Both the position numbers and the translations under genes were made by a program. The notes under the pieces were generated by a model. It saw only the letters and a program-made list of their open reading frames with translations, was not told the origin of the DNA and did not search any database. A stretch of DNA of 63,478 nt, filler included, from Stramenopiles sp. TOSAG23-6 (taxonomy: Eukaryota), in NCBI GenBank assembly GCA_900128565.1. It is 8 parts of 8 records of this genome, joined end to end, with 100 filler letters (N's around TTAATTAATTAA, not from the genome) between each part and the next. Parts side by side here need not be neighbours in the genome. Positions count along the whole stretch, not along the records: positions 1 to 8,875 come from LT636410.1; positions 8,976 to 17,826 come from LT636411.1; positions 17,927 to 26,741 come from LT636412.1; positions 26,842 to 35,656 come from LT636413.1; positions 35,757 to 44,552 come from LT636414.1; positions 44,653 to 53,433 come from LT636415.1; positions 53,534 to 62,278 come from LT636416.1; 1 more part is not named here. One strand, 5' to 3'. Shown here piece by piece: positions 1 through 59,800 of this stretch (within the stretch, counting starts at the first letter, position 1; the number at the start of each line of letters is the position of its first letter).

Positions 1-46
1 ATTTTGTACCTAACAAATTTCGAATTTAATTTTTTTTACAATACAT

Positions 47-425
47 GTCTTCAATCGGGGCTGAAATTTTTAAAAATCGTCTCCTGCAGTTTATTTACAA
101 ATTGCTTGGAGGTTTTAACTCCCCATCAAGCTTAGTGTCAATAGCAACTGCTTCCAGTGTTTTAATCATGGTATTGGAAATTACCCGATCTCCCCATTCT
201 TCCAGGAGGGCATTTCGTCGGATATTTAGGAAGTTTCTATTTACAATGGCTACTAGTGGGTGTATTGTTGGTTCTGTTGGGGTAGGCATTAAATTTTGGA
301 TGGAGTCGTCAGAAGAGCAGCGTACACTTTTTCGAAAAGCTTTTTCCTTTTTAAAGCGACCGGGAACTTTACCATCTATTGCTGTGATTGCTTTGATGAT
401 AAAATTTACACGTCGCAAGTTTTGA
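47..425 (+). CDS. Last exon of an unknown, probably membrane, protein (5'-partial)
   Basis: Follows the 3' half of a family intron (1-46, ends CAATACAT); open frame to TGA 423-425 with hydrophobic stretches. Confidence 0.5.
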
Positions 426-562
426 TGAATTTAATGTATTACTTGACAATAATACACTATGAATTATAATATAAATCCAGGAAATGTTAGGTTTTGCAAA
501 TTTTTTTCTTTTTATTACATTCTTTTATAAATCTTTTGAAATCAAGTGTAAAAAATATCAAG

Positions 563-3645: not shown

Positions 3646-3873
3646 AAATTACCCGTCATTTCACCATGTGGTACAGTAATTTATAAATGAATAAATAAAG
3701 CAATCTTTCATAAGAAAAAATAAAATCGATTCTTGATGTAGATTTTTGTTTTGTATATCAAAGTTTATTTTTAAAATTAAGATATTTATTTCAGTTTTTT
3801 CACTGATCATTTTTTTTCGTACGAAATTTTATACCTAATAATTTTTTTTAATTTTTTCACTAATCATTGCTTA

Positions 3874-6616: not shown

Positions 6617-7669
6617 CTATGAATGATACTTGTATCCGGTATCCGTATCTACCATTTCTGTCATTCTATTTCTTGAATTTCTTGAATTTCGTGTTCTTTT
6701 CGTTTTTTTTGTACCTCTAGCAACACATCGAGCAACGCAGACTAAAACCAATGCAAGAATCGCAACAACACACTCAAAAATACCAAGTAAAATAAAAACA
6801 AATGCAGATTTCTTAAAAAGTTTCTGGAAGGCATCACTACAAGTTACTTCATCTGTCATAACAGAACCTAATTTAAATGGACCACTTAAGATTTCACCTT
6901 TGTTGGCTCCTTCTAGAAGAAACTTTTTTCCTTCACCTGGNAGAGGACTGTATTGTGAAAAAATACAAAAAAAAATCGTTAGGTACGAAATTTTCTATGA
7001 AAAAAAACTAAGTTTGAAATTCATGATGAAAATCTACTAATTGCATGTAAACACATTGGTCATCATATACGGATGTGCTCTATCATATCCACAACAATTA
7101 AAGAATTTTTGAGTCTTCATCCAACTACCATATGTAAATGGATCTTGACATTCTTCGGCAACACAGCCTTTTGGACCAGGTAGTCCNAAATGTAGGTTAA
7201 TATATTCAATGCTTTTCCTGCTCAAGGACAATGAAGTTTCGGATGTCTTTTCTTTGCCACTAATTGGTGTATTCAAATCAATTTCATTAGAATAGTTGAG
7301 AGAATATACACCGCAAGTAATATGGACTATGGAAAACGCAGTAACAAATATGATAAATATATACATTGGCCATCTTGCAGCATTGTGATCCATATCACTT
7401 CCGTCAGAGTTTCGCCGGATAGCCTGTGAGCGCATCTGACAACTACCAACAATTCCACAAAGAGATAAAACAGCCATTGCTAAGGCAATCGAGCCACATA
7501 TTATCAGAATGTAATCAGGAAGACCCAACAAATCTACGTGGTTAAACAAAATGTGACCAGCGAGACTGAGTGCAATTAGACTCAACACAAGCATTATTGA
7601 CGTTAGAGTAATCAAAAGAAAACCTAGACGCCTACCGCAGTTCGTACAACACATTTCAATATTACACAT
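6617..7669 (-). CDS. Tetraspanin-like membrane protein; family intron 7037-6948 (GT-AG)
   Basis: Three N-terminal TM segments, CCG loop motif, one C-terminal TM; frame restored by the intron. Confidence 0.75.
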
Positions 7670-8875: not shown

Positions 8876-8975
8876 NNNNNNNNNNNNNNNNNNNNNNNNN
8901 NNNNNNNNNNNNNNNNNNNTTAATTAATTAANNNNNNNNNNNNNNNNNNNNNNNNNNNNNNNNNNNNNNNNNNNN
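8876..8975. other. Artificial contig spacer (others at 17827-17926, 26742-26841, 35657-35756, 44553-44652, 53434-53533, 62279-62378)
   Basis: Identical 100-nt N-TTAATTAATTAA-N blocks with stops in six frames; the contigs between them do not increase in length along the window. Confidence 0.97.
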
Positions 8976-9031
8976 TCGTACGAAATTTTGTACCTAACGA
9001 TTTTTTTTTGAAATATTTTTCCAAAATACAA

Positions 9032-9379: not shown

Positions 9380-10950
9380 ATGATTGCAGAGATTCTAAAA
9401 AATAAAATTATAACAAGGTATACCTTTGTACTTTGTATAATTGTAGCATTTGAGTCAACAGAAGCGGCAACGCTTGCACCTGCACACTCTGCACAACATC
9501 ATGGACACCATGCAATGCTACAAAGTAAAATACTCCAACATAACCTAGGCCTTTCAGCAAAACCTCACGAATATCCAACAAACCATCGAGACAGTATTGC
9601 CGCAATCCGCTTATATACTGCCGGGGAAGATGAATCAGAACATAAGCTAGACCTTCAGAAGGGAACATCTCCAGTAGGTCTTGATTTAGGGGGAACTTTA
9701 GCAAAATTAGTTTACTTTGAATCTGCTGACACTGTAGACGCTACACATGAACTTGATCTTGAATCACCTTTGGAAAGTTTCTCTTTAGATTTTGAATCAG
9801 GACAATTACATTTCCTTTCTTTTGCATCGAATGAATATCAGGAAAATTTGAAAAGATTAAATGAAGAAGAAGGAATCTCACCAGATATTAAACTTTGTGC
9901 GACAGGTGGTGGAGCTACTAAATTAAAACAAGACTTGGTGAGCATACAAGAAGAAGATGAAATTCAGATGCTAAGAGTTGGAATGAATTTTGTGCTTTCG
10001 CATTTCAAAGCTGAATTATTTTTTTATAATGCACAAGACACACGCGTACCATGTATGTTTTTTTTTTTTTTTTTTCAATTTCGAATTTCGAAGTACCACT
10101 TGAAGAAGAAATAAAATATCCGTATTTACTGGTGAATATTGGATCTGGTGTCAGCATTATAAATGTTACTGGACCAGGTGAAGATAATTTTACGCGATGT
10201 GGTGGTACAGCAATTGTATGTTATCCACTACTATTTCAAATATTTAATATAGTTTTTTTTCCTATGAAAATTTGTACCTAACAAAAAATAATTTTGAAAA
10301 TAGATTTTTTTATACTAATTGGCGGAGGAACTTTTTTTGGTCTTTCGAAATTTCTGACAAATATCAGAACTTTTGATGAAGCTTTAGATCTTGCTAATGA
10401 TGGTGATAGCACAAAAGTGAATTTAACGGTCAAGGATATTTATGTATGTTTTATTTTTTTTCAAATTCCAATTTTTTTTTCATACGAAATTTTGTACCTA
10501 ACAAAAAACATTTGAAATATTTTTCCAAACTACATGGTGGTCCCTATAAAGATTTACCTGAAAATTTGACTGCGGCATATTTTGGAAAGAACAAACCAGC
10601 TCATGTGGAAAGGGCTGATCTTATTGAAGCAGCGCTTGAAATGGTATCTAGTGCTATAGGTGCAATTGCAGGTTTACAAGCCTACAAACGTCACTCAAGT
10701 GCAATTATGTAAGTTTCAAAGTTTCAAATATTTTCAAATATATTTTTTTCGTAATAGATTTTGTATCTCACAAAAAAAAATGTAAGATATTGTACAAAAA
10801 TATAGATTCACAGGAAGTTTCCTCAAAAACAACGAAACAGCAATGAAGAAACTAACACAGCTAGTGGATGGCAAAAGAGCATTATTCTTTAAAAATGATG
10901 GGTACTTTGGTGCTCTAGGCTCATTACTTGAATGTGAAAAAACTCTATAA
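9380..10950 (+). CDS. PANK: Type II pantothenate kinase (Fumble family); introns 10053-10093, 10216-10320, 10444-10535, 10709-10805
   Basis: [57 protein letters not shown]. Confidence 0.93.
10216..10320 (+). mobile_element. Introner-like intron, GT-TT
   Basis: Removal restores GGTAI-GGGTF; nearest AGs give a stop or frameshift; AATTG direct repeat. Confidence 0.85.
10444..10535 (+). mobile_element. Introner-like intron, GT-AT
   Basis: Removal restores KDIY-GG; first downstream AG is out of frame. Confidence 0.9.
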
Positions 10951-12096: not shown

Positions 12097-13159
12097 TTAT
12101 TTATAGTGTTCTAGAAATATAGTACTTCCTTCAACACCAAGCATTAACAAACCACTTGATATAAAAGCACGAATACAAACAGGAGATAAACCTCGCCAAA
12201 GTTCCTTATATCCATTTTTCTTCACAATATGTGTAATACTTTTGTATAGGCTAATATTTGTAGGTAAAGTGCCAATTTGTTGTCTCGATTTTATAATATC
12301 CATTGGCAAAACTGAAGCCCAAGCGATTGAAGCTGCTAAACCACCACAGAACGGAAATCGTAAGAAATAAAGATTTTCAATAAAAGAATTCGAAGTTCGA
12401 GTCGTTTTAGTTAAGACATGTGTTTCAGGTATTTGTTGGGGTATCCAGGGTTCCATGCAATCCATACTCTCTTCTGTGTCATTCCATACATGTATTGTAA
12501 AAAAAACACGGAATCACAAAAAAATCGTTAGGTACGAAAGTTCGTACGAAAAAAGTTTCAAAAAAAATAATAAATTTGAAATTTAAAAAAAAAAAAAGTA
12601 CATGCATTTTTGATTCGAGTGTTTGTGTTGTACACTTATATACTGAAAAGAAAATTCCATAATATGGAATGTCACGTGCCCAGATTGCTGTTAAACCTCG
12701 AAATAAACCATTTATACCTTCAATTTGTAACAAGTGTTGAAGACATTTGAGTGGACCTGACATATTGCCACTCCGTGTTGTGGCTGATTGTAATCTACAT
12801 TTGATTGCTTCTGGACCGCATATGACTGCACTACTTATAAAACCAGTGAATGAACCTAATAAAATTTCGGTTTTAAAAGAGAGTTTTGCTTTTTCCTCAG
12901 ATACAAAACGTCGTAACGCACCATTAATCGTAAACACAACCATATTTTCTAAACATGACACAGAAAGAGCAGGGACTGCACCTTTGTATAAAGCAGTAAA
13001 TCCCTCAACACGTATTGTCTTCGTGGTACAATGAATAGGCCCTCTAAACACATTTGGAGAATATGTTTGCAAACGAACTTTTATCGTGTCCATTGGTAAT
13101 CCACCATAGGTAGAAAGAGTCCCACCAACAAGTCCCGAAAAAGCGTCCTGCCAAGTCAT
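12097..13159 (-). CDS. Mitochondrial carrier (SLC25, ornithine/carnitine-like); family intron 12601-12490 (GT-AT)
   Basis: Three PX[D/E]XXKX[R/K]XQ signatures: PMDTIKVRLQ, PEAIKCRLQ, PMDIIKSRQQ. Confidence 0.92.
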
Positions 13160-13624: not shown

Positions 13625-16600
13625 ATGTGGGGCTATGGTGCTAGCTCATCGGGAGGTACTGCAGATATATTTGACGGAAACGAGGCATTATTGACAGAAA
13701 TGGAGGCGCAAAATGCACTTTTTGATGTGTGTAGAATTGGTGGACATACGGGAGCATTGGATAAGCTGATAAAGGTATACAAAGTAAATTTGTCAAGTTT
13801 TAATGATGAAGGTTTCACCCCATTACATGTAGCTGTATTGAATGGTAAGGTTGATATTGTTCGTACATTGTTACGTTCTGGTTCACCGCTACTTGTTTCA
13901 CGCGAAGGAATTACTCCAGTTCAGATTACAAAAGGATTGAGTGTTAATGTAGTTGATAAAATTATGCAAGTCTTTAGAGCTGAGATGCTTCATCAGGTGG
14001 CAATAGGTAATGTAGTACGTTTAAATGAACTTGTCAAATCTGGTCTTTCTGTGAACACCCGTGATGGTACAAAAGAAAATGGCACATTACTGCACTGGGC
14101 TTGCAGCTTCAAGCAAATCAAAGTTATTCAGTTTTTGCTTCAAAAAGGTTGTAATCCAAATAATCTCAATTCTTTTGGTGCCACGGCTTTACATGAAGCT
14201 GCAATATCTGGAGATATGAAAACTGTCGTAGAACTTCTTAAATATGGCGCTAAAAAAGATATTTTAGGATCATGTGTGTTTTATTTTTTTGAAAATTTGG
14301 ATTTTTTTTTCGTACGAAATTTTGTACCTAACAAAAACTTTTAATTTTTTTTTGAAATATTTTTCCAAAATACATCAGGAAAGTTCTCTAATTCAACTCC
14401 ATATGACATTTCAATACAATTTGGACAAAACGAACAAATATCTTCACTTCTATTACCTGGTATTATAAATCCTTTTCATTTAAAAACGTCTACACAGAAC
14501 ATTTCATTGGATCAAACTCCCACAAAAAAAATATTTGACTCAGTTCTGTCAAAAAATAGAATAAAAAATAGTATAAAAAATTGTGATGAGTTTACAAGTG
14601 AAAAAATGTCCATTCGATCAATGTCACTTAGAAAATCACTTTTGTTTTTAGGTATTGATGATGATCACTTTGATAGTACATCTTATCCGATAACATTTCA
14701 TACAAAAAATACAAAAAATACAAAAAATACAAAAAATATAAAAAATATAAAAAATACAAAAATTTTATTTATCGGAGGTATTGGTCAAAATGAACATTCT
14801 ATCGGAGATTTTATCTTTTCTCCAAATGTCTCAAAACATTCAAATTGTAGATGGATAAAACGTGTATCAAAGAATAATACAAAAAACAATCAACAAATTG
14901 ATTCATGCATGGTTCGACATTGTATGTTTTTTTTAATACATTTTTTTTTCTACAATTTTTTTTTTTCTAAAAAAAAAAAAAAAAAAAATTAAAATTTTTT
15001 TTTATACGAAATTTCATACCTAACAAAAATGTAATTTTTTTTTTTAAATATTTTTTTACAAATACATCAAGTATACATCTTCTTGAAAGATCTATAATTT
15101 TAACTATTGGTGGAGGTGCACAATGTTGGTCTTTTGGGAAAGTATTTAGTGGAATTTTTACATTACATTCAGAACATGTTTCAAATTGGATAAAACAAAA
15201 ATATAACCCTAACCCTAATACCCTCCAAAATGTTGTACAAAAAAAAAAAAAAAATTGTATAAATACGTTAAATACATTGACGTCACTTTGCAAAAATGAA
15301 AGTGACATCGAACAACAAAATTACACAGAAAATAATATTAATTATAATCATTTTAATGCAATTACTATTCCAAGTATAGGAGCTAAAATAATCAAAACAG
15401 TTTTGGAAAAATTTGTTTGTTTTTAGTATGAATTTTTTTTTTTTTTTTGAATTTTTTTGAATTTTTTTAGAATTTTTTTTTTTAATAAAAATTTCATACC
15501 TAACAAAATTCTGAATTTTTTTTTGAAATATTTCTTCACAAATACATCATCTTTTTGATAAAAGTAGGAAAATCAAACCTTCTTCCTCTACAGAAGATAT
15601 ACTTGTAATTCCTGTATTATACAATTCAAAAGTATCAAATCTAATTAAAAATTTGAAAAATTTGAAAAATTTGAAAAATTTGAAAAATATTTGTACTTTT
15701 GGTATTGATGAAATTTTGAATACTTTTATTGAAAAAAAGGTAAAAAAAATGATTGTACAAGAAAAATCAAAAACCAATTCAAAATGTACTTTTACAAATT
15801 TTGAAGAAAAAGAAGAAACATATCGTAAAATTGTATCGGAATCATTTTGTAGTAGTCTACAACAAATTGAATGTATTTATATCCCTAACCCTAACCCTAC
15901 TACAAATCATGTAGAAAAAAAACAAAAAAATCAAAAAAATCAAAAAAATGCCTCAATTTCACGGCAATATGCTCAAAAAAAAGCAAAAGCCAAACTTCTT
16001 GATCGTGTATCTAATGTGAATGTAAAACCGACTCATAAAAATAGTTGGATTAATGCAGCTCAAAAAAATACAAAAAATGAAACAATAAATAAATTCGAAA
16101 TTAAAAATACAAAACATGAAAAAAATACAAAAAATGAAACAATAAATAAATTCGAAATTGAAAANCAACAAGAGAGNAACCCTAACCCTACTACAAATAC
16201 TACTACTATTCAACAAATTCAGTCAATTGTCGCTCAAAAAAAAGATACAAAATTGTTAAAGGTTGCATGTACGTTTACTTTTTTTTTTCATACGAAATTT
16301 TGTACCTAAAGATAACAAAACAAAAAAGATTTTTTTTTAAATTTAAAAAAAAAAAATTTTAAATTAATTTTTTTTTCATAGTAAATTTTGTACCTAACAA
16401 AAAAAAAATCAAAAAAAAAAATAATAATTTTCACAATACAGTAGAACAAATTAATCAATATGATAATTCAAGATTAATCTCGACTATTCCAACAGTTCAA
16501 TCATCACCATTATTAATAATTGATGAAATTGATGATAAAAACATATTCGATGATTGTGTTTTAATACCTTTTAAAGAGTATGAAACAGTTATAAAGTATT

Positions 16601-17715: not shown

Positions 17716-17719
17716 GTAT

Positions 17720-17753
<34 letters not shown>

Positions 17754-17978
17754 TAAATTTTTTACCTAACAAAAAAAAAAAAAAAAATTTAAAACAAAAA
17801 AATTTTATAGGAAATTTTGTACCTAANNNNNNNNNNNNNNNNNNNNNNNNNNNNNNNNNNNNNNNNNNNNTTAATTAATTAANNNNNNNNNNNNNNNNNN
17901 NNNNNNNNNNNNNNNNNNNNNNNNNNCAAAATTTCGTACGAAAAATAAATTCGAAATTGAAAAAAAAATAAAACATAC

Positions 17979-39792: not shown

Positions 39793-40085
39793 GTATTTTT
39801 TACATTATAAAGTACACAGTTACAGAATATTTTATCCTAAAGCTTGCCTACATCATCAGCCTTACTTATCATCAATCATTTTTATATGTTAATTATTTCT
39901 GTGTGTATATGTTTTCATTTTTTTTTTTTTTTTCATAGTAAATTTTGTACCTAACAATTTTTTTTCAAATTTTTTTTAAAATAGTTTTTTTTTTTTCTCT
40001 TGACATATAGATTTACTTGCTTCTGTCTATCCAAAGATTATGAAGAAATCCATAAAACGGATATGATTACAATAGATTTATTAAT

Positions 40086-43000: not shown

Positions 43001-44496
43001 GTATCATATATTTCTGTATCTTCAGGCCAACAATCAATTAAGCTTCCCTTCCGATTGGTTATATAAGAGCTTCCACTACGCTTTGGAAAACTATTTGCAG
43101 TTGATGATAGTGTTGATGCAGTTACAGCATCGGATCTATTTATGTTTGATACTTTACTAAAATTCACTACAGCAGAATCTGTGCAATAAGAGGCGGTACT
43201 TGGTAATTTTGAAATTAAATTTTTTTTTTTGGAACTAGAATTTGTACCTAACAAATTTCGAATTTGCTGAGTGACACCCCGTTTAGTGGAATTCGTATCA
43301 TCACTTTCAAATAAGACGCCATCTGAGACTGACCATGTTATCTTTTGCGTTGGATTATCAATGTCTCCAAATAAAAAATACTCGCACTTTTCTAGGCTAT
43401 CTGAATGTAATAATTTTTGCTTCTCATTCGTACCAAATTTCGTACCTAACGAATCACAATGGGTAAATTGTGCGGAATGCATGTCCCACAAAATTGATGC
43501 TGCATACATCAAAGAGTCTAGGGTTAGTGTTCGTGGTAGATTATCATTATAAAAATTACACTTATTATTTTCTATATTATTTGTTGTGTATCAAGAAAAA
43601 ATATTTTTGTTTTGTAAAAAAATCGTTAGGTACAAAATTTTCTATGAAAAAAAAACAATTATAAAAAAATAATGATGAACACCTACATTTTCCCCATGTA
43701 AAATCCAACACGTAATAAAAGAGAATACACCGAATCCTGTGAATCAATTTTATACGTATGATGCGACACATTTTTATCTTTGCTTTCCTCTTTTTCATTT
43801 GAACTCAATGAAGATAAAATCTGGGATTTCGTGTATTTTTCACCAACATTTTGTTCAATATTTTTCGTGACTTTCTTTACAGTTGTTTTTTTGCTTCGTT
43901 TAATTTTTCGCTTTGATATTTTAGATATTTTATTCATTCGTACCATTTTTGGTACTACTCCACCCATATATGCAATCTTCAAGTTGTATTTAGATGTAGT
44001 TATTAATCTCAATAATTGCAAACATTGTGACATTTGAAGAATATTATTTTGACATTTTTTAAGGTATTTAGGATTTTTAGGATTTTTAGGGTTAGGGTTA
44101 GGGTTTACAGTTGTACGAGTTTTTTTGTTTATTTGTTTCGGTTCTAATTGTTCTTGAATATCACTTATATACTCAAGCAAAATTTTAATACCACCTTTTG
44201 CAAAAAATGGATCACAGTCATCCAAAAAGTGAGAAAAAATGTAATGCAAAAACTGAAAAGCAATAGAGCCCATACATGTCATATTTTCCACATTTTTTGA
44301 AAATTTTGTTGGTGATATTGGAGATATTAATTTAATAAGAATGTGCAAACCTTCAATTTTAATGAGCCGATTGATGTTTGTGCTGCTAGTACTGCTTGGG
44401 TTCTTCATCTTCATTTTCTTTAATTTCGTGGGAATTCCGCAATAAATGACTAAAAGTTCAAGAGTTAAGTTAACTAACTTGTCATACTTACGATTG
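40086..44496 (-). CDS. Cytosolic carboxypeptidase (AGBL/CCP, M14), 5'-partial; introns 43686-43586, 42592-42504, 42379-42279, 42137-42039, 41752-41596, 41382-41263, 41096-41012, 40689-40562, 40433-40336
   Basis: FESANL, QWYYF, FNI|VNLEKPDS.Y..GMKP, FAH|CQPYTYS, RVHPGETPAS|W, PMLNVDGV..G..RCSLSGLDPNRQ, DMHAHS, TIESTF. Confidence 0.92.
41263..41382 (-). mobile_element. Introner-like intron, GT-AT
   Basis: Removal restores HPGETPAS-WMMDG. Confidence 0.9.
42039..42137 (-). mobile_element. Introner-like intron, GT-AT
   Basis: Removal restores YKFNI-VNLEKP; next AG is out of frame. Confidence 0.9.
43586..43686 (-). mobile_element. Introner-like intron, GT-AC
   Basis: Ends GATACAC at the family-aligned position; frame restored; first downstream AG is out of frame. 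Confidence 0.7.
44086..44105 (+). repeat. Interstitial (TTAGGG)n tract inside a coding exon (one of about 12 such sites)
   Basis: TTAGGGTTAGGGTTAGGGTT, read as NPNPNP on the coding strand. Confidence 0.8.
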
Positions 44497-44741
44497 ATGT
44501 ATTTTGGAAAAATATTTCAAAAAAAAATTGTTAGGTACAAAATTTCGTACGANNNNNNNNNNNNNNNNNNNNNNNNNNNNNNNNNNNNNNNNNNNNTTAA
44601 TTAATTAANNNNNNNNNNNNNNNNNNNNNNNNNNNNNNNNNNNNNNNNNNNNTTTTTTTCAAATTCGATTTTTTTTTCGTACGAAATTTTGTACCTAACA
44701 AATTTAGGTTTTTTTTTTTGAAATATTTTTCCAAAATACAT

Positions 44742-46836
44742 CGGTTTACGATCATTTCAATTTGATTCAATTGTCAATGAAAAAGGTAGTCAAAAGCTTG
44801 TATTCGAAAACACAAACTCGATGGTCACTGACTTTCTGAATGGATATAATGCCACGATAATCATGTATGGACAAACTGGCTCCGGAAAAACACATACAAT
44901 GTTTGGTCCTCCTGTAGGCTCACTTGGCACCCATGTACATTTTATTTTTTTTTTTTACAAAAAAATCGATTTTTTTTTTGTACGAAATTTCGTACCTAAC
45001 AAAAAAAATAAAAAAAATATTTTTTCACAATTAATATACAAAGGAAGACACAACGTGGTCTTGTACCACGAATTTGTGAGGAAGTTTTATCTTGTATTAG
45101 AATACGTAGAGAACGAGGCATTACGTGTACATTTTTATCATGCATTTTAAATTTATTTATTTTCGTACGAAAATTTGTACCTAATGATTTTATTCTTAAA
45201 TATTTTTTTACAGTACGTGTGAGCTCAGTGTTTCATATATTGAAATCTACGGCCGTTCTGTAACTGATTTGTTATCAGGAGGAAGTCAAGTGGGCCATTC
45301 CAGAGTATCTGCTCAAAGATTTGTGTTAGCTGGACATGCAAAACGTATTGTTCAATCCATGTACGTTTTATTTTTTTTTTTTACAAAAAAATTGAATTTA
45401 TTTTTTTGTACGAAATTTCGTACCTAACAAAAAAAATAAAAAAATATATTTTTTCACAATCCATGTCAGATATTGATTCAATATTGACTGATGGAGATTT
45501 ACAAAAGAGAAGGGCAGCAACAGCAATGAATAAACGTTCATCAAGAGCACATTCCTTATTTATTCTAACCTTAGCAATGGAGGCACCGCAATCTTCTTCT
45601 AATGAAAATTCTAATTCTAATGATACAAAAGGCAATGTTTGTATACAAAGTCAATTATTTCTTGCAGATCTTGGAGGAAGTGAACAAGTTAAGAAAAGTA
45701 AAGTAAAAGCTGGCAGTTTGAGAGAAGGTATAGGATTTGTCCTTGGTCAACACATGAGAGAGGCTATATACATTAATACTGGATTACTTGCCCTTAAACA
45801 TTGTATTTCAGCATTAAATAGAGGTGATTCGTTTATTCCATATCAAAATGATAAATTAACCATGCTACTTTCACCAGCTCTAGGAGGTAATTCAAAAGCT
45901 TGTGTGATTGTATGTGCTAGTATGGACGATTCCAATGCTAGTGAGACATTGCAGGCCTTGCGCTTTGGGGAAAAATGTATGCGGGTAAAAAATGATGCTT
46001 TTCAGAAAAAGTCGACAGTGAGCCATCTTGTCAAAAAGATAGATCAAGAAATGCTTCAACTAGAAGAAACTATTCGTAAAAAAGAAAGATGGGAAACAAA
46101 AGAAGAAAGAAAGATAGATTCATTGGCAGAAGAAGGTACCCATGCTGCGGTTTTAAATAAACAAGGTGGAGAAATTATTCGCGTTGGATGTTTGTTTTAT
46201 TTTTTTTCAAATTTTGAATTTATTTTTCGTACGAAATGTTGTACCTAACGAATTTTTTTTGAAATATTTTTCCAAAAAACATGTCTAGTTGGAGCTGAAA
46301 CCGAAAGAGCTAGACTTGAAGTATTAATTGCAAAAAGAGCTGATCTCATGGGAGAACAAATTGATATGTCATTACCCGAATCTGGTTTTGGTGGTAAATA
46401 TGGAGGTAAAATTGATGCATTAGGAGGACACAGTGCTACAAGATTTGCAGCTAGCTCTACAGATCAAGGGTTGTTTATTGATGGTAAAAACGCAGGTCAA
46501 TGTATGTTTTTTTTTTTTCAATTTTGAGTTGTTTTTTTCGTACGAAATGTTGTATGTAACGCTTTTTTTTTTGAAATATTGTTTTGAAACACATGGACTG
46601 GCTCTCACAGTGTTGAGGATGACATTGGAATGAAACATATACGAATACTCCCAGAATCTGGACACTTTGAGGTTTGTGTTCCACGAGGAAATTCGTATTT
46701 TATTAGGGAATGTGGAAAGGATATATCACTTGCAAAGACAGTCCGTGATCAAGTGTGGCAGTGGAATATGAATGGTAGATCGAAAGCATTTATTAGAAAA
46801 GCAATTCAGAGAATACAAACTATACCTACATCATGA
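44742..46836 (+). CDS. Kinesin motor protein (5'-partial); introns 44935-45035, 45127-45218, 45361-45464, 46190-46282, 46502-46594
   Basis: YGQTGSGKTHTM, SYIEIY, MNKRSSRAH, LADLGGSE, IPYQNDKLT.LL..ALGGN, ETLQALRFG. Confidence 0.92.
45361..45464 (+). mobile_element. Introner-like intron, GT-AT, with a 10-nt direct repeat
   Basis: CAATCCAT|GT at both junctions. Confidence 0.88.
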
Positions 46837-46931
46837 TTTGTTTTGGGTGGTTTTGGGTTACGTACAAAATTCTCTACGAAAAAAAAAAAAAGAAAAACAT
46901 ATAAATTTTAAGTGAAATAATTAAATTTATC

Positions 46932-49076: not shown

Positions 49077-49138
49077 AATTCATACAAAATGAGTGACTTT
49101 AAACGAGTTTTATTCTTAATACTTTTCTCTTTAACTCT

Positions 49139-51110
49139 TTAACGCCTTCTTGGAGCTTTGTGTTTCTTCTTTGCATCTGCTTTCATTGCTTTAATCCGCT
49201 TATTTACATTTTTTTGTTGCTCTTTGAGGGATACCTTCATTTTTTGTCGTACAGCAGATGAAAATTTAACCATACCAAAATTTTTCTTCCTTGTTTTTTC
49301 AATATTTGTACTTCCTCCGCCTTTTTCCTTGGAACCATATTTATCACGACCTTCTCGCACTGCTTGTAACCGTTCTTCCTTCTTTTGCCTCTGTTTAAAG
49401 GAATAACCAAGAAGCATACCTGCAGACACACAAGTTGTACTTGCACTAACACCACCAACTGTATTTTCATACTCTTCATCTGAATCATTATCGCTATTCA
49501 AATCGCCGTCAGAACTGCCCCAGTCATCATCAGAATTAGTACTGTTTTTATTCACCGATGTTTTTATAGTTTGTGCGCCATATGCATCAGGTTTTGCACC
49601 CTTCACATGCTCTTTGCCACGATCTCGTGTGTGAAGTAATTCAGGATATAACACACGAACATCATTTATCAAACCACGTGCAGCTATCACAACTCCTTTA
49701 TCATTATATTTTTTATACTCTGCTAAATCTCTAATTAAAGGTTTCAATTCAGGCTCTGATAAAATATGAGGTACTCTTGCGCAAACCGCACGAATAGTAT
49801 TAATACCAATGGCGATGACGTCACCCGGCCTTCGATCAGTGATGAAGTTGTCTGCAATACCACGTAATACTGGTACTAAATCATCAGCAGGAACTAAATC
49901 GTGACAAGCCTGCACAAGATAGGCAAGGATACTCGTAACTTGAGGTTGAGTAGGCGACGCGGTGTACCTTTGGAGGTGTGAATATAAATTCAATAAGATG
50001 AGCTTGTGACGTCCAACAACTCTGGACAACAAATTCATCATCACAACTTTTACATCAAAGTTTTGATTAGTTTGTCTTAACTTTTTAAACAATCTCTCGG
50101 TAAACCCTTGCGGATCACTAATCGAATCAATTGCAGGGAAAAGATTCGTCACTGGACGAATTTTACCGTTCTGCATTTGAGATCGCATCCGTTTAGTTTT
50201 TTTTAATGCTGAAGCCATCACGCGTTGGCGTTTTCTCGTTTTTTTGGCATGTCGATTATGTAATTTAATTTCCTTCACCGTGACAATTGTAGAATACTCT
50301 TCGGTTTCTTCTTCTTTTGTGTCATGGTGCATCCTTGCTTCTATGTATTGTAAAAAAATATATATTTTTTGTAATTGTTTTTGTTAGGTACAAAATTTCG
50401 AATGAAAAAAAACATTCGAAATTGAAAAAAAATTAAACATACATTCCAAGAAAAAACTGCATAGCAGCAGCAGCGACTTTCGCCTCAGGATGAAAGACCG
50501 CATTTGCAATGACATTGACAGTCCGAGAATCGGTCCATACTCTTCTTCTGTATAATTCTGTCAGAACTGCAAGAGCTTTGCGGGAAATGGCAGGGGTATC
50601 ATTATTTACCTGCTTGAACACGAAATACTGAGTCTGTTTGATTTCTTTAGTATTATGACCCTTTTGAAAATGATTACGAACATCCGCAACAATGAAAGCA
50701 AACATATCTTTACGGAGCTGTTTGTCTTCGCATGCAAAAAGTCGGAAGAATAGTGTGAATAAAGGAATAGCACCGAGTAAACCTCTATTACGTATGAGTA
50801 CTAAAGCTTGAACAATGACTTGACGCATTTTTGGCTGCATGACAGCAAAGTGCTTTCCAACAAGATCGATAAGCTGAGATGGAAACATTTCCATATCACG
50901 AGGGTAACAAGGCATCACTTGACTCAAGAACTGAACAAGAGAAGCAAAGTGAGGGGCCTTCTGATTTGCTTGGAGTTGAAATATTTCGAGTTCTGACTGA
51001 AAATGAGAAAACTGCATCTGAAACTCCTGCTTATATGCGTCGGGATCGCGTTTGACACGATTTTGGAGCAGTGGAAGATCTGCCGTCATTCTTTCACTGG
51101 ATGCATCCAT
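49139..51110 (-). CDS. SDA1: 60S ribosome biogenesis factor SDA1; intron 50442-50343 (GT-AT)
   Basis: LPLLQNRVKRDP.AY..EF, WTDSRTVNVIA, DPQGF.E.LF, QACHDLVP, GSTN.EK.RKKNF.M. Confidence 0.93.
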
Positions 51111-52495: not shown

Positions 52496-53374
52496 ATGGA
52501 GCCATTGGCTAAAACTTCGAAATTTCAAATGCCATTTAGTCGAAAAAGAACTCGTACTGGTTCTTTAGGTGCTGTCGATTTCCCCCCTCGAGTTACACCT
52601 TTCAGTTCATCCCATTCTTTACCACCAACAAGGAGTAGGTCTCAAACGCCTTCTGATTTGAATGACTCTACCTTCAAAAAGTCTCACAATATATTTAGAA
52701 AAAACGCGTTGCGCCGTACAAGTTCTGCCCATGTAAGAGGAAGAGACCCAAGTTCATTTACAAATTTAAGAAATTTAAGATCTTTGTATCCTTTTCATAC
52801 AAAACTGCCTCGTGGTACAACTGCAAGTGGTGACTGGACAGCTGAAAGCCTACGAACTTTATCTACAGCACAACAGAAACTTTTGTGCCGAAAATTTTCC
52901 GGCAAAGCACCATCAAGATGTTTACTTTGGCTCCAACAATGTGGCGTTGATATATCCCCTGGATATCGTCATCGAATTGAAGAGGACTACTGTAGTCGTT
53001 TGGACGAGGTATTTGGTACTCGGAATGTAAAATGCGTTGCTAATGATTTACTATATCACACACCATTGATAGATGATGCCGCATTTTACTCTGTCGGTCG
53101 TGGACGTAGTCTCCCCATCGAAAAGTCATTTGCAGTGAAAAGAATTTTATGCGTTGTTTGTGAATGCACAGGTCTTAATTATGTATGTTTTATTTTTTTC
53201 TTACAAAAAAATCGAATTTATTTTTTTTTTCGTACGACATTTTGTACCTAACGAATTAAAAACATATATTTTTCACAATATATGCACCAATGCTCCCCGA
53301 AATATTGGCGCTTATGCTTGAACCTTGCGAAGATGATGAACTTTTGGACGGCCAAAACCTTAACTCTAAAGGGT
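52496..53374 (+). CDS. Probable TBC/Rab-GAP-like protein (3'-partial); intron 53183-53283 (GT-AT)
   Basis: KRIL......GLNY|APMLPEILALML after intron removal. Confidence 0.55.
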
Positions 53375-53587
53375 GTTTGTTTTATTTTTTTTCAATTTCG
53401 AATTTATTTTTCGTACGAAATTTTGTACCTAACNNNNNNNNNNNNNNNNNNNNNNNNNNNNNNNNNNNNNNNNNNNNTTAATTAATTAANNNNNNNNNNN
53501 NNNNNNNNNNNNNNNNNNNNNNNNNNNNNNNNNTACGAAATTTTGTACCTAACGATTTTCTTTTTGAAATATTTTTTCATCATACAT

Positions 53588-54853: not shown

Positions 54854-56404
54854 ATGATATCTGCCGTATGCTGGGCACGTAAATCGACAATGAAGGCCCA
54901 GCCTTCTGTCGTCCAAGAACCAACAGAGTCAGAGATGATTGAAATGCGCCGTGCTGCAGAGCTTGAGTGTATCGAAGTTGAAGCAACAAAGAAAGCTAAA
55001 GCTGCTGCTGCTGCCATGGACAAAATCTCGAACTCCGTTTCAACTGATTGTATGGTGGAAGATGTTTTACCTGCTGAATTCGACATGGAAAACTACGATA
55101 ATGATGAAGAAGAACATGATGAAAGTGCATTGCTTTCTCAAGTTTTAGGGATAAACAATATGACGTACCACAACGATAACGCTGAAGACCCGTACATTAC
55201 TCTCAAAGAAGGAAACGATTCTGACACCGATGAGGAAGAAGACTTACGCTTGAAATCGAGTGATTGTATTATTCTTGCAGCAAAGGCTGAAGAAGAATAC
55301 AGTTGCTTAGAAGTTCATGTGTATGAAGCAGATACGGGGAACTTTTATGTTCATCATGATATGGCACTGCCTGCCTTTCCTTTATGTGTAGAGTGGCTCG
55401 ATTGTTGTGGTCATAATGCTGAGATGGGTAGTTTCGTCGCAGTGGGAAGTTTCCGTCCTCAAGTAGAATTGTGGGATTTGAATACTATCGGTGCAATGGA
55501 ACCTGTTCTTACATTGGGTGGTATGGAAGATGGAACAGTAATTCCTGACAGTCACACAAGTGCTGTTCTAGGTTTGTCATGGAACGCATCTCAACGCAAT
55601 CTACTTCTCTCTGCTTCTGCCGATCACACTGTAAAATTGTGGGATGTCAGTGAAGGTCGATGTGCTCTCACTATGCGTCACCACAACGATAAAGTGTCTT
55701 CAGTACGTTGGAATCCTGTAGAAACTTCTGTTTTAGCATCTTGCTCTTTTGACCGTTCTGCTGTTGTGTTGGACGTTCGGTCACATTTAGAAGGTTTAAA
55801 GTTGTCGCTGTTAGATGATGCTGAGGAACTTCAGTGGAACCCACACAACCCTGCTCTACTTCTTACTGCTACTGAATCAGGTGCAGTGTGTTGTCATGAT
55901 GTTCGAGTTGCATCTTCTAGTAAGGGAAAAGATCAAAATAGATCAACTCTGTGGACGTTACAGGCGCATAATAAATCTATTACGTCTTTATCATTAAGTC
56001 CATTGATACCGGGTATACTGGCAACATCTTCTGTAGATAAATCAGTCAAAGTTTGGGATATTTCAGGTCCAAAGCCAATTTGTATTGCTTCAAAAAACAT
56101 GCAAATTGGACCATTATACTCTGCTTCATTTAATCCTGAGCATCCCTTCCTTCTCTCAGTAGGTGGTGATGATGGACGACTAGCTGTTTGGGAGACTTCG
56201 GAACAAACTGCGATTGAAAAACGTTTTGCTGGTCGTGTCTTGGATGAGCCACCTTTTCAAAATTGTCACAAGAATGAAAAAAAGGACACAAATAATTCAG
56301 AAATGAACGAAATTGATGTACCTGTTTTAGGAGATTGTATGAAACGTGTAGGACCAAAAGTTAAGAAAATGAAAAAAAACAAGAAGAAGAAAGGTAGACG
56401 ATAA
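54854..56404 (+). CDS. PWP1: Periodic tryptophan protein 1 (WD40)
   Basis: MISAVCW, DPYITL, LEVHVYE...NFYVHHD..LPAFPLC.EW, WD40 repeats; intronless. Confidence 0.92.
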   Translation: MISAVCWARKSTMKAQPSVVQEPTESEMIEMRRAAELECIEVEATKKAKAAAAAMDKISNSVSTDCMVEDVLPAEFDMENYDNDEEEHDESALLSQVLGINNMTYHNDNAEDPYITLKEGNDSDTDEEEDLRLKSSDCIILAAKAEEEYSCLEVHVYEADTGNFYVHHDMALPAFPLCVEWLDCCGHNAEMGSFVAVGSFRPQVELWDLNTIGAMEPVLTLGGMEDGTVIPDSHTSAVLGLSWNASQRNLLLSASADHTVKLWDVSEGRCALTMRHHNDKVSSVRWNPVETSVLASCSFDRSAVVLDVRSHLEGLKLSLLDDAEELQWNPHNPALLLTATESGAVCCHDVRVASSSKGKDQNRSTLWTLQAHNKSITSLSLSPLIPGILATSSVDKSVKVWDISGPKPICIASKNMQIGPLYSASFNPEHPFLLSVGGDDGRLAVWETSEQTAIEKRFAGRVLDEPPFQNCHKNEKKDTNNSEMNEIDVPVLGDCMKRVGPKVKKMKKNKKKKGRR

Positions 56405-56873
56405 CTATGAAATTTAATTTTTTTAAATGGTATTATAAAGTATTTTTCAGTCAATTTCGGATTTCTTAGATATAAAATGTTACAAAATTTTTAATGTAGT
56501 AATACATTTCAAAAAAAAATGAATTAGAATTTTGATTACTATATTTTGAATTTGCTATAATAGCTAATAATATATTCATACGTAATATAATAATATTATA
56601 ATAATTACTATTATAAATAAAACAGATCAAGTTGAGATTATTGAAGATGTTACCAAAGAAAAAGTAGTGTTGTTTTCATCATGTTTTTGTTTTTACCAAT
56701 TTCAAAATTTTTTTTTTCAAACAAACACCAAATTTTTTTTAATCAAAAAAAAAACATTTTTAAGTTCTAAAAGTTTTCTTCGCCAAGCGATATCAGAATA
56801 ATAGATTTAGATTCTTCAATAATATATTCAACTAGGCGGCGTGCGATTACTAGTATACTGATTATAGATTTTA

Positions 56874-59800
56874 ATGACATCAGCTTCAAATCAATTGGTT
56901 CGTGTCCTTTCTAAACTTCCTGGCCTTTCTAATGTCGACTATGACTTGTTGAAAACTCTCGATTGGCCTGTGCGTGTAAGGATATTAGTCACCTTGCTTG
57001 CTACCATTGGAAGACATGATGCTTCGCATCAATTAGAAGAACTTTTAACTAAAAAAATGTGGTCACATAGTCGCGCATCTCAACTTTGTTTTGATGAACT
57101 CTCAAGACTCGGTGCACATCGAGTTACAGACGGTTCCACTCCGAAAAACCTTCTCGAAGATCGTGAACGATGTGTAGCAATATTTACGTTCCTACTTCAG
57201 AAAGCACGTCTCTGGAATTTTACGAGGAAGCAAAACCATAAGAAAGAAGAAATGGGGAGGAATGCAATGTTTCATTCTGGACAACGGGTTGAAGCACTAT
57301 GGGCACAAGGACAAGATCCTCAGCATGGTAATCGGTATTTTGGTGCTAAAGTGATTGAAGTATTGGGGGAAGAAAAGTATAAACTGCAGTATGATGATGG
57401 CGGTATAGACCCAAATGTGTTGGGGTTACATATGCGTGTGTTTGCAGAACCTAGGCGAAAATCAAAATATAAAAAAAAATGTAAAAATGATTTTAAAAGT
57501 ACAAATAAAAGTGTTCAAAGTATACGAGGATCTGGGGCTAATGCTGTACAAGGATTGCATTTTAAAAGTACAAATTTAAAAAGTACAAATAAAAGTGTTC
57601 AAAGTATACCAGAATCTAAGTTAGGGTTAGACAAATTTCAAGAATCACAGAATCACTTTGATGATTCGGAAAATAAATCTTCAAGCAAAACTACAACAAA
57701 TCTTTACTGGCCCGCAGAATTACCAACAAATAAAACTAGAGAAAATATACAAACAAAAAATACAAAACATAAAACTAATAAAAACAACACAACAAAAAAT
57801 ACACGAAGTGCTAAAATAGAATTTTTTACAACCACTGAAATATCGAAAGATCATAAAAGTAGTAGGCATTGCAGTGATTCCGAAAAAGATATTCTCATTC
57901 AAAATTTAAAATCTGAGCTCTCTCAATTAAACAACTCTCATAATGCTTTATTACAAAAATTTCACTTGTATTGTGATGAAATTTCAGATGATAGAATTGA
58001 CTTTACTTATGAATCTACATTACATAGGAAATCAGAGAGGAAATCGAATATGGATAGCCCTAACCCTAATCTTAATGATGCAGAGTTGGAGAGGACATGT
58101 GGAAGGTCTGCTGCTGGTCTTTTTACTTCTATTGGAAAGCCAAAAAGACATTCAATAAAACAAAATGATACAAACAATGCAAAGAATACGTCTGGAATAA
58201 AACCAAATGTTCTCAATACTTGTACGTTTTCAAAAATGAATTTTTACCAATTTCGATTTTTTTTTCATAGATAATTTTGTACTTAACGATTTGTTTTACT
58301 AAAATTTTTGGTTTCACAATACAGCAAAGAATGATTCAATATGGAAGAAAAGATCGCTTTTATTGAGTGCACAAAATTTACAACTGAAACGTCAAATATA
58401 TTTATTGTCTACTGCAGCCACTTTGCGAGAAGATTTCGTGACGACTACAGATAATGTTTTGTGCGAAGTGGATGAAATAATTTCCAATTTAATAGAATCC
58501 AATAATGAATCATCTTTGGGAGGTCATGTTGATAATAGTTTAGGATATAACAATTTTTTATGTAAACAAAAAAAACAAAAAAAACAAAATGTTTTTCAAG
58601 ATACTACTCAAAATACTCAAAATATTCAAAATACCCAAAAAGATGAGCACAATTTTCGATCATTGCGGAATATAATGGAAAATATCAAAAGTCTTCAAGA
58701 TACTTTGCATGTATGTTTTATTTTTTTCAATTTTTTAACTAAATTTGTTTTCGTACGAAATGTTGTACCTAACAATTGTTTTTTTACGAACAAAAAATTT
58801 TTTTTTTCACAAAACATGCTTCAAAGAGAATGTCCGGACGAGCCATGGAACAAAAAATGCATGTCAATAGTTTTTCAATGTCATTTTTGAAACGCAAAAG
58901 TGGTACAACAACCTCAACAAATACTACCACTACGAGTATAAATAATACAGATGATAATTTATTAAGCGTATCTGAAATATGTAAAGGATTAAATAATATA
59001 GATACTGGCAACGAAAGTTTAGACGATGAAACATTATTTCTAGATTTGAGTAAAGTAAATCATTTAGAGCAGAACGTGATTGAGATTTGTTCACACTTGC
59101 TGAAATTATTACCAAAACTTCAATTGAGTGCAGCTGCGACACCACATCTAGTACAGACTACTGGTACATCTCGTAAAGTTGCAAGTCATGTTCAACATTT
59201 GTCTAATTGTACGCGATCTTTAGTATTAGCTCTAGGTGGTATAGGCGCTTTGTTACCATCACAGCCTAACCTTAATCTTTTATCTGATAATTCCTTGTTT
59301 CAAGCGAATTATGATGATACTAATATAGAAAGTAATGCAGAAACATTGGAATCAACATTAATGAGGATATTGTCCCAAGAACTCCCACCTTCTCGCGCAG
59401 TTGATCGATGTACCAATTTAGTACGTAAATATATCAAATCTTATGAACGATCTAATTTGTTAGTAAAGCAATCACTGTGCACTGAACTTTCCGCTTTTAG
59501 AGATACGCGCCAACTTGAAGCTGCAGTAGCACAAAGGTTAATTGCGGGTTTACGAAAAGTAAGTGATTCCCATCTTTTACAAATCTGTAGGTCAGTTAAG
59601 AAGCCTTTGGAAATAATCTCTGAATGTTTTGAAGAATATCAAATTGCACGAGATTGGCCAAAAATGAAAAATAAATCAAAAAAAACGGAAAATATTCAAA
59701 CAACTGAAATTGATCCAATATTAAAAGTGAAACAGTTTCTTGCCACTTTTGAGTCTTATGCTGATGATATTCGAAAAGCGTCCAATGAACTTCAAAAATA

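Follow-up and report, generated by a model that had tools for sequence, protein, structure and literature searches.

The DNA considered here, referred to as the window, is a stretch of 63,478 nucleotides (nt) from Stramenopiles sp. TOSAG23-6, and its genes are interrupted by many copies of one family of short introns, most of which do not end in AG. The window is low-GC eukaryotic DNA (GC 29-38%), in scaffold form, with seven gap fillers of 100 nt each and single Ns at scattered places. The genes are ordinary ones. By Pfam, they encode ribosomal protein S7/S5, SUI1, a mitochondrial carrier, ankyrin repeats, a SPEF2-like protein, PH domains, Ldh_2, a GH31-like protein, TPR, a carboxypeptidase, a kinesin, SDA1, Ras, WD40 and EGF repeats. 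Judged by its proteins, the host looks like a stramenopile; the best protein matches of the kinesin, at most 60% identical, are to entries named Incisomonas, Rhizochromulina, Ochromonas, Triparma and diatoms.

The repeat family is readily detected. Its branch-like motif, TGTACCTAAC, has 56 matches in the window when up to one mismatch is allowed, compared with 2.74 expected and a highest value of 7 among 100 shuffles. An nhmmer profile made from five clean copies, with one iteration, yields 66 matches or pieces in the window, two of which are reverse-strand self-matches due to an internal palindrome. Donors and 3′ blocks were located with simple weight matrices, and each copy was then checked by reading frame and, where possible, by homologues. 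Complete copies number 48, one more than the 47 counted in an earlier note on this DNA, and extend from 6948 to 58817; two of these span assembly gaps, and partial copies are present at 1-46 and at gap edges. The complete copies are spread over at least 20 genes in 63 kb and are 85-173 nt long, with a few longer. Identity to the consensus is 52-84%, and reaches 91% in the best pair. The family supplies essentially all introns of the window.

The 5′ part of a copy consists of a donor GTAYGT, a T run, a short AATTTCGAAT-like segment, a second T run and the palindrome TTTCGTACGAAA. The 3′ part displays TTT and TGTACCTAAC, a variable A/T stretch, GAAATATTTTTYCAMAATAC and two further bases, such that the excised segment ends exactly 2 nt beyond the 3′ block (..TTTYCAMAATAC). 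The donor hexamer GTAYGT, which had been given for the family as a whole, is found in 31 of 48 copies (GTACGT in 16, GTATGT in 15), and two copies start with GCATGT. Introns begin with GT in 46 cases and GC in two; a GT/GC donor with a GTAYGT-like hexamer fits U1/U6. The motif TGTACCTAAC is of the CTRAY type, has a T-rich tract downstream and is the putative branch site, and the distance from the branch A to the intron end is 31-81 nt, with a median of 38 nt. Of the features of U2-type introns, the GT/GC donor and the CTRAY branch with pyrimidine tract are present, but a 3′ AG is found in only six of 48 copies.

Reading of the 3′ AG during the second catalytic step belongs to the most conserved features of splicing. 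The ends of the 48 introns are AT (33), AG (6), TT (5), GT (2), AA (1) and AC (1), so that 42 of 48 are non-AG; the tally had previously been the same except for 32 AT. Position -3 is C in 36 copies, T in nine and A in three; position -2 is A in 41, T in five and G in two; position -1 is T in 40, G in six, A in one and C in one. In a first pass with motif scoring only, an end at core plus 2 nt was in frame in 38 of 40 copies. In the final list, 46 of 48 copies retain 30 or more open codons on each side when cut at the family-predicted end, compared with only 10-13 of 48 in a control with the end shifted by ±1, ±2 or ±4 nt. Six boundaries were moved by hand, those at 10216, 17392, 41752 and 43686 on frame and motif, and those at 33759 and 32998 after alignment gaps. 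Alternative AGs were counted from -25 to +40 around the end in the 40 non-AG copies of an earlier 46-copy list, and in 20 of the 40 there is no AG alternative that keeps the open reading frame (ORF).

The complete copies are listed here with strand, termini and, at the end of each line, the basis of the assignment.

6948-7037, - strand: complete copy, GTAGAT..AG; profile match, open frame
10216-10320, + strand: PanK copy, GT..TT, exon end TT; PDB PanK2 numbering contiguous over the junction
10444-10535, + strand: complete PanK copy after DIY, GT..AT; frame, no ORF-keeping AG alternative
10709-10805, + strand: diverged copy, GTAAGT..AG; frame
12490-12601, - strand: complete copy, GT..AT; frame
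14274-14375, + strand: complete copy, GT..AT; frame
14922-15067, + strand: complete copy, GT..AT; frame
15415-15547, + strand: complete copy, GTTTGT..AT; frame
16269-16441, + strand: complete copy with branch region duplicated in tandem, GT..AG; alignment, frame
17392-17503, + strand: complete copy, GT..AT, end set by frame; frame
18335-18428, - strand: complete copy, GT..AT; frame
21115-21204, + strand: complete copy, GT..AT, stop-free, inside an ORF of 1848 codons; frame
26644-26892, + strand: copy split by an assembly gap, GT..AT; alignment
27039-27130, + strand: complete copy, GT..AG, exon end AG; frame
27252-27397, + strand: complete copy, GT..AT; frame
27536-27624, + strand: complete copy, GT..AT; frame
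27751-27921, + strand: copy starting GCATGT, ending AT, donor uncertain; frames ambiguous
28066-28165, + strand: complete copy, GTATAT..AT; two frames open
28307-28399, + strand: complete copy, GT..TT, exon end TT; frame
32007-32096, + strand: complete copy, GT..AT; frame
32602-32725, - strand: Ldh_2 intron 5, GT..AT; gap-free against homologues
32899-32998, - strand: Ldh_2 intron 4, GTAAAT..TT, exon end TT; gap-free once the donor was re-placed
33122-33238, - strand: Ldh_2 intron 3, GT..AT (LGM/MVE); gap-free against homologues
33271-33391, - strand: Ldh_2 intron 2, GT..AT; in frame, one residue beyond homologues
33549-33759, - strand: Ldh_2 intron 1, composite, GT..GT, exon end GT; gap-free once the 3′ end was re-placed
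35320-35420, + strand: complete copy, GT..AA; frame
37206-37296, + strand: complete copy, GT..AT; frame
38076-38170, + strand: complete copy, GT..TT, exon end TT; frame
39905-40010, + strand: diverged copy, GTATAT..AG; short ORF near gene end
40336-40433, - strand: carboxypeptidase intron, GT..TT, boundaries cannot slide; polyA-RNA contig joint, gap-free against homologues
40562-40689, - strand: complete copy (carboxypeptidase), GT..AT; frame, in a variable protein region
41012-41096, - strand: complete copy, GT..AT, unused AGs 5 and 17 nt before the end; gap-free, RNA contig departs at 41020
41263-41382, - strand: complete copy, GT..AT (PAS/W), unused AG 18 nt before the end; gap-free against homologues
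41596-41752, - strand: complete copy, GT..AT (FAH/C); gap-free against homologues
42039-42137, - strand: complete copy, GT..AT (FNI/VNL); gap-free against homologues
42279-42379, - strand: copy starting GCATGT, ending AT, boundaries uncertain; frame only, about 12 residues beyond homologues
42504-42592, - strand: complete copy, GT..AT; frame
43586-43686, - strand: complete copy, GTAGGT..AC; frame, nearest AG (+14) out of frame
44935-45035, + strand: kinesin intron, GT..AT; frame, in a variable loop
45127-45218, + strand: kinesin intron, GT..GT, exon end GT, unused AG 5 nt before the end; gap-free
45361-45464, + strand: kinesin intron, GT..AT, last 8 nt identical to the last 8 of the upstream exon; gap-free
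46190-46282, + strand: kinesin intron, GTTTGT..AT; gap-free
46502-46594, + strand: kinesin intron, GT..AT; gap-free
50343-50442, - strand: SDA1 intron, GT..AT; Pfam and PDB alignments
53183-53283, + strand: complete copy, GT..AT; two frames open
53375-53587, + strand: copy split by an assembly gap, GTTTGT..AT; alignment
58222-58324, + strand: complete copy, GT..AG; frame
58711-58817, + strand: complete copy, GT..AT; frame

Genes were spliced by coordinate and aligned to fetched relatives, which covered 20 junctions in four genes. Fourteen of these are gap-free, and all 14 are non-AG (nine AT, three TT and two GT); five are undecidable and one has one extra residue. In the kinesin, the junctions at 45127 (GT..GT) and at 45361, 46190 and 46502 (GT..AT) are gap-free in conserved blocks. 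Four of the five Ldh_2 junctions are also gap-free, i.e., 33759-33549 (GT..GT), 33238-33122 (AT), 32998-32899 (TT) and 32725-32602 (AT), and the fifth, 33391-33271, is in frame with one extra residue relative to homologues. The first models of two Ldh_2 introns, 33759-33540 and 33002-32900, left alignment gaps of three residues and one residue, respectively, and were dropped. The cytosolic carboxypeptidase has five gap-free junctions out of eight (FNI/VNL, FAH/C, PAS/W, RQY/M and RN/CGRV), the other three being in variable regions; RN/CGRV is the junction of the RNA-supported intron 40336-40433. With this gene, Pfam searches with single exons are too weak to place junctions, and a representative search with an exon gave one weak match.

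In PanK, the numbering of PDB 5e26_A puts the end of the exon before 10216 at residue 209(+1) and the start of the exon after 10320 at 211. The exon after DIY has no match in PDB, and the GG side of DIY/GG comes from what we take to be the PanK motif, together with the frame. It had been proposed that protein motifs force many of the non-AG ends; FNI/VNL, FAH/C, PAS/W and LGM/MVE are indeed borne out by the alignments, and DIY/GG on the DIY side only. In SDA1, the Pfam and PDB alignments leave an uncertainty of three residues at 50442, in an acidic linker.

Several introns contain or adjoin AGs that are passed over. An unused AG at least 10 nt past the branch A and before the used end is present in eight of 48 copies, five of which are homologue-validated. 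For example, TTTACAG precedes the end of 45127-45218 by 5 nt, as does CACAG that of 41012-41096. At 46190, use of the in-frame AG located 6 nt downstream would cost two conserved residues. Of interest is a public predicted protein, P0243, which is 100% identical over the query exon and is spliced at other junctions. Relative to all homologues, it has VQ for VNLE (a 2-residue deletion), an added CTA (3 residues) and an added YIFHYT (6 residues). The YIFHYT segment arises from an AG 18 nt inside intron 41263-41382, and the protein ends by reading into intron 41012-41096. This suggests that gene sets for such genomes are systematically mis-modelled.

Four marine metatranscriptome runs cover parts of the region, and contigs were placed over 35757-44552 only. 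A contig of the polyA RNA-seq library X5 (record 26) matches 40095-40335 and then 40434-40508, and skips the 98 nt of 40336-40433. The skipped segment reads GTACGT...ATACTT on the minus strand and is a GT..TT intron, and as the neighboring bases differ, neither boundary slides. The contig differs from the window in 9 of 241 letters on one side and is from a related strain. A second X5 contig (record 27) departs from the genome at 41020 with 12 letters left over. A stop at this position is as splicing of 41012-41096 predicts, since the last 9 nt of the exon and of the intron differ at one base, and record 27 would then reflect the spliced form. Most other contig joints in the interval link different repeat copies and are uninformative. 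In each of two RNA libraries, over 1,100 contigs match the copies at 90-100% likeness, which points to very many copies in the source populations. The very high summed depth over copy sequence in X1 and X2 indicates only that these libraries contain many similar copies. RNA support for removal at non-AG ends is thin.

The ends of the introns resemble the ends of the preceding exons. In 28 of 48 copies, the upstream exon and the intron end in the same 2 nt, whereas 18.05 ± 2.2 are obtained when the pairing of exons and introns is permuted (P = 4e-5; the maximum of 50,000 permutations was 28). Among the 15 non-AT ends, seven match (TT four, GT two, AG one), compared with 1.5 expected. The locus-specific match is found at positions -2 (35 vs 25.5), -3 (22 vs 15.8) and -1 (38 vs 34.5), with none at -4 to -6 and none between the first bases of the intron and exon 2. 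The last base of the exon is T in 39 of 46 copies and the preceding base is A in 28 of 46. Copies with matching flanks are closer to the consensus (0.721) than the others (0.684; one-sided P = 0.045), as is expected if the repeat decays with age. A locus-specific match of this type is the signature used for calling introner target-site duplications, as described in the accessible text of PMC9860276, and the flank repeat of the present family looks like a target-site duplication. A duplication of 3 bp that includes the donor G (ATG) was considered and rejected; exon 2 begins with G in only 24 of 48 copies, with no locus-specific match.

Other signs of mobility are present. A candidate terminal inverted repeat, ATGTATGTT/AAAATACAT, of 9 nt at 89%, was seen at the extreme ends of two copies out of four examined. 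Every one of the 48 complete copies is sense, as had been stated for the family without exception, but five partial copies are found antisense inside long ORFs of the opposite strand, and four partial copies are outside coding sequence. The antisense partial copies consist of the central part with the branch motif, with both ends missing. They would be translated (in the carboxypeptidase gene, for instance, as ..SLGTKFGTNE.. within the N-terminal part) and may represent exonised antisense insertions. Together, the antisense fragments, the non-coding partial copies and the inverted repeat suggest insertion at the DNA level. The partial copies are as follows.

1-46, + strand: 3′ part of a copy cut at the window edge (..ATACAT); sequence
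3806-3848, + strand: partial copy between two convergent genes; profile match
8976-9031, + strand: 3′ part of a copy following a gap; alignment
10053-10087, + strand: PanK remnant of 35 nt from the 5′ part of a copy (GTATGT..AT; T run, CAATTTCGAAT); sequence
17146-17250, - strand: two tandem partial copies, antisense in + strand ORF 16363-17415; profile and ORF comparison
17716-17826, + strand: 5′ part of a copy entering a gap; alignment
17927-17978, - strand: 5′ part of a copy entering gap 17827-17926; alignment
18204-18255, + strand: partial copy, antisense in - strand ORF 17882-18355; profile and ORF comparison
32326-32380, - strand: partial copy downstream of Ldh_2; profile match
32430-32491, + strand: partial copy downstream of a + strand gene ending near 32309; profile match
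35570-35656, + strand: 5′ part of a copy entering a gap; alignment
35756-35830, - strand: 5′ part of a copy entering gap 35657-35756; alignment
43207-43259, + strand: partial copy, antisense in - strand ORF 42544-43590; profile and ORF comparison
43415-43457, + strand: partial copy, antisense in - strand ORF 42544-43590; profile and ORF comparison
44497-44552, - strand: 3′ part of a copy adjoining gap 44553-44652; alignment
44653-44741, + strand: 3′ part of a copy after gap 44553-44652, first kinesin intron seen; alignment
46856-46887, - strand: partial copy downstream of a - strand ORF; profile match

Individual copies display further peculiarities. The PanK remnant at 10053-10087 is without the branch motif, and the PanK exon frames on its two sides are 2 nt apart; its removal roughly fits the spacing in PDB PanK numbering, and a very short intron, a T run counted wrongly or a broken gene could each account for it. 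The branch-site region is doubled in tandem within single copies at 16269-16441 (+ strand) and 17146-17250 (- strand). The 90 nt of 21115-21204 are a multiple of three, such that retention would add 30 residues and leave the protein unbroken. Ldh_2 intron 1 starts with a branch-less copy, 33681-33759; the next 130 nt or so contain a separate CTAAC and, with GT at its end, a family-like 3′ block, and the whole resembles a nesting or fusion of two copies. In intron 41596-41752, four tandem 16-nt units (GTTCAAATGTATTGTT-like) are found right after the donor, at 41680-41745 (- strand). The copies at 27751 and 42379 (- strand) start with GCATGTTTTCATC in place of GTATGT or GTACGT, and either have a GC donor or are cut 4 nt further on, at GTTTTC. 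The most similar copies of the window (91%), 44935-45035 and 45361-45464, are 326 nt apart in the same kinesin gene. Past the last intron of this gene (46595-46830, + strand), the frame continues for about 70 residues beyond the end of all aligned homologues (W-x-x, stop).

The scaffold gaps are at 8876-8975, 17827-17926, 26742-26841, 35657-35756, 44553-44652, 53434-53533 and 62279-62378, and the filler is composed of 44 N, a 12-nt six-frame stop linker and 44 N. Family copies adjoin six of the seven gaps, and at three of them copies on opposite strands face each other. This is expected if the assembler broke at a high-copy repeat. As the contigs end in the family repeat, adjacency over these gaps comes from scaffolding only, and the family copies thus also limit assembly.

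How the 3′ end is chosen was considered with respect to distance and to RNA structure. As the branch A is anywhere from 31 to 81 nt from the end, distance to the branch does not determine where the intron ends. RNAalifold on the aligned copies gives no consensus fold (-0.08 kcal/mol) and no terminal helix, and Rfam has no match in the window. A candidate terminal helix, in which nt 1-4 and 6-7 would face -6..-3 and -9..-8, has 77% of cells paired in 24 copies; however, its covariation is not above that of shuffles (24 of 500 reach the score) and position 4 is broken in 11 of the 24 copies. The helix was therefore rejected as a functional ruler and is kept as a possible inverted-repeat relic. 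We infer that the second-step site is chosen from the pyrimidine at -3, the mostly A at -2 and the upstream T-rich block, with the last base free. The 3′ site is most likely measured from the 3′ block or the T tract rather than from the branch point.

The family is probably, although with appreciable doubt, a transposon-like introner whose duplicated target supplies a mostly non-AG 3′ end, in a host whose spliceosome tolerates such ends. A short non-autonomous element would have spread through the genes of a low-GC marine protist, each copy carrying its own donor, palindrome, branch motif, T-rich tract and 3′ block. The last 2 nt of the intron would come from a target-site duplication of 2-3 bp, and removal of the element with one repeat would restore the original coding sequence. 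Insertion would strongly favor sites ending in T, mostly AT and often then followed by G, which would result in mostly GT..AT introns, with TT, GT, AG, AA and AC from other targets. The host spliceosome would perform the second step without reading AG and would ignore nearby AGs. DNA-level transposition, use of the major spliceosome and the way in which the 3′ site is measured are what we infer from the features described above.

The RNA joint, the 14 homologue-validated non-AG junctions and the bypassed AGs agree with the proposal of the earlier note that the spliceosome has relaxed the terminal G, and they point to such relaxation indirectly. It is a fair reading that the terminal G is dispensable, and in seven copies the A also. 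A stronger proposal, put forward tentatively and with less confidence than the introner origin, is that the main spliceosome ignores AG altogether and cuts 2 nt past the 3′ block, needing only a pyrimidine at -3 and mostly A at -2 and passing AGs 3-18 nt upstream and 6-21 nt downstream, and that nearly all introns are GT..AT and derive from one element. If so, a re-specified 3′ splice site would for the first time be seen in a lineage whose donor and branch are canonical and yeast-like, and the introner could invade without needing AG at its target.

A number of observations weigh against the introner with tolerated non-AG ends. An AG at a multiple of three from the end, within the same -25 to +40 limits, is present in 14 of the 40 non-AG copies, which is a third and not the rough quarter thought before, and homologues exclude the in-frame AG for only three of the 14 (46190, 41382 and 41096). 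SDA1 may use an in-frame AG at +9 of 50442 instead of GT..AT. There is only one exact RNA joint, for which an insert-free allele of the related strain is conceivable as template, and the flanks of this RNA-defined copy do not repeat (TG vs TT). Contigs of library X3 (records 19, 20 and 22) span most of 41012-41096 and all of 41263-41382 and 43586-43686, and may represent unspliced RNA or DNA carry-over. With respect to the duplication, 20 of 48 copies have no flank repeat; in the 21 copies with AT at both places, a repeat is indistinguishable from the preference of an AT-ending element for AT sites; and 33759 and 32998, which are counted in the repeat, were re-placed after alignment, in which the repeat was not used. 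The inverted repeat is short and A + T-rich. No transposase was found by Pfam among 38 ORF and exon translations of the window, and neither an empty site nor an autonomous element was found in the window or in metagenome contigs. In the metagenome contigs, a protein scan with a kinesin exon gave no relatives and an exact 24-nt family pattern gave 0 matches.

The spread of the family may be explained differently. The excised intron may reverse-splice into a transcript, be reverse-transcribed and recombine into the gene, with the likeness of the flanks reflecting site preference; the non-AG ends would be unchanged. Such RNA-mediated spread, which we consider unlikely, also predicts that complete copies are sense and lie inside transcribed regions, as all 48 do, and it is in keeping with the lack of a transposase or autonomous copy in the window and of a flank repeat at the sole RNA-defined junction. 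This reading has been given for fungal introners that have neither duplications nor inverted repeats (PMC9860276, in its accessible text). On the other hand, a fixed site preference does not predict the locus-specific match of non-AT ends (seven of 15 vs 1.5), the five antisense ORF fragments and the non-coding partial copies are not expected from reverse splicing, and selection alone can yield a sense bias. A different position of the cuts is more doubtful still. Where flanks repeat, the true cuts could be 2 nt to the left, giving AT..AC introns with AC carried by the element and 5′ AT by the duplication. Fifteen of 48 copies are formally writable as AT..AC, only eight cannot slide at all, and a slide of the boundary yields the same mRNA; AT-AC pairs handled by the major spliceosome have been described, as far as the consulted part of PMC1557818 goes. 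The cut before the donor G was nevertheless kept, since the GTAYGT consensus is in register with it and the sole non-sliding joint is GT..TT. In addition, a cut 2 nt leftward at 42137 gives FNN, where six of six homologues have FN plus a hydrophobic residue, as in the FNI of the model, and TT..AC, GT..AC, AG..AC and mismatched copies (33 of 48) would go unexplained.

Removal by a transformed minor (U12-like) spliceosome, tolerant of varied 3′ dinucleotides and relying on long rigid motifs, is also improbable, if marginally less so than the AT..AC placement. The donor and branch motifs are long and highly conserved, but this is expected anyway among copies of one repeat. In Physarum, GT-AT makes up 17% of 1,425 non-canonical U12-type introns, and their expansion has been linked to a transposon with 2-bp duplications (accessible portion of bioRxiv 10.1101/2020.10.12.336362). 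The donor [AG]TATCC is found in 0 of 48 copies, and consequently none has [AG]TATCCTT; the donors are GTACGT, GTATGT and their relatives. The branch motif is TACCTAAC, not TTCCTTRAC, and the branch A is at a median of 38 nt from the 3′ end rather than at the 9-12 nt given for Physarum in the same source. Such introns would also make up nearly all those of the organism. The least probable explanation is that the inserts are removed from DNA in a ciliate-like manner or are absent from many alleles, or else that nearby AGs are used and the proteins carry small insertions and deletions. The related-strain origin of the joined contig and the in-frame AGs near 14 of 40 non-AG ends would fit. However, the signals of donor, branch and T tract are present, all sense, in every complete copy, half of the non-AG copies (20 of 40) are without an ORF-keeping AG, the P0243 model with its other junctions is visibly worse against homologues, and intron-containing contigs are present in an RNA library.

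An introner whose target supplies the 3′ end has several implications. A canonical donor and branch with the last base or bases free isolate the choice of the 3′ site from other signals. The introner rule, whereby the element provides one splice site and the duplicated target the other, extends far where the host tolerates non-AG ends. Any genic AT would be a possible landing site, and this may explain why essentially every intron of the window is a copy. Gene finders bound to GT-AG mis-model these genes, and protein sets and functional inferences may be systematically damaged.

Transposon-derived introns with non-canonical ends have been published (PMC9860276 and PMC11282704, as far as their accessible texts go). 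In the literature searched, with supplements and approximately 1.7 million PMC articles outside the search, no family was found in print that combines a canonical donor and branch with a 3′ end that is mostly AT and derives from a duplication. The same search found no paper that pairs "introner" with "GT-AT" or "non-canonical introns" with "MAST-4", and the words "splice" and "canonical" are absent from the main texts of two papers on single-cell genomes of uncultured marine protists.

According to the same partial texts (PMC11282704, PMC9860276), the IE1 introners of Micromonas and the introners of Chrysochromulina carry the 5′ site and co-opt the 3′ site, an AG, from the duplication. Like these, the present copies are short, occur as many similar copies at unrelated genic positions and are co-oriented with transcription; the element gives the donor, the duplicated target gives the last bases and excision restores the frame. 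Unlike the present family, the Micromonas and Chrysochromulina elements co-opt AG, for which a standard spliceosome suffices, and have duplications of 3-4 bp. In the present copies, AT predominates among the duplicated bases (33 of 48 ends), which comprise about 2-3 bp, and AG is neither required nor preferred. The introns of Fritillaria borealis that derive from miniature inverted-repeat transposable elements (Henriet et al., 2019, as summarized in the accessible text of PMC11282704) are similar with respect to mass recent gain, non-AG ends and an exonic trinucleotide mirrored at the 3′ end of the intron (TAC there, mostly CAT or NAT here), and the major spliceosome of that host is also thought to have become tolerant. 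Fritillaria, however, is an animal in which AG-AC and AG-AT are commonest, whereas the present family is in a protist and has a canonical 5′ GT in 46 of 48 copies and a yeast-like donor and branch.

The introners of Amoebophrya (accessible part of PMC7789003) are likewise from a marine protist, have direct repeats of a few nt over their boundaries and are part of a genome in which most introns are non-canonical. They differ in having no dominant pair of termini and inverted repeats of 8-20 nt that can pair the ends, and U1 is apparently lacking; in the present family, GT..AT dominates, the donor is clearly of the U1 type and no end-pairing structure is supported. The stable end-to-end pairing of euglenid-type nonconventional introns is also not seen here. 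The U12-type intron expansion seen in Physarum polycephalum is comparable in that thousands of introns have been attributed to a transposon with a 2-bp duplication and GT-AT is among the tolerated ends (bioRxiv 10.1101/2020.10.12.336362, in its accessible portion), but the donor and branch motifs are other ones, the branch-to-end distance is 9-12 nt there and 31-81 nt here, and the non-canonical share is 0.8% there and 42 of 48 here. The description as an undescribed splicing system overreaches, as the donors are of the ordinary major type, the branch is of the CTAAC type and the last dinucleotide fits a duplicated target. In comparison with these known systems, the finding is better described as an introner with a non-AG 3′ end from its duplicated target, in a tolerant host, than as a new splicing system.

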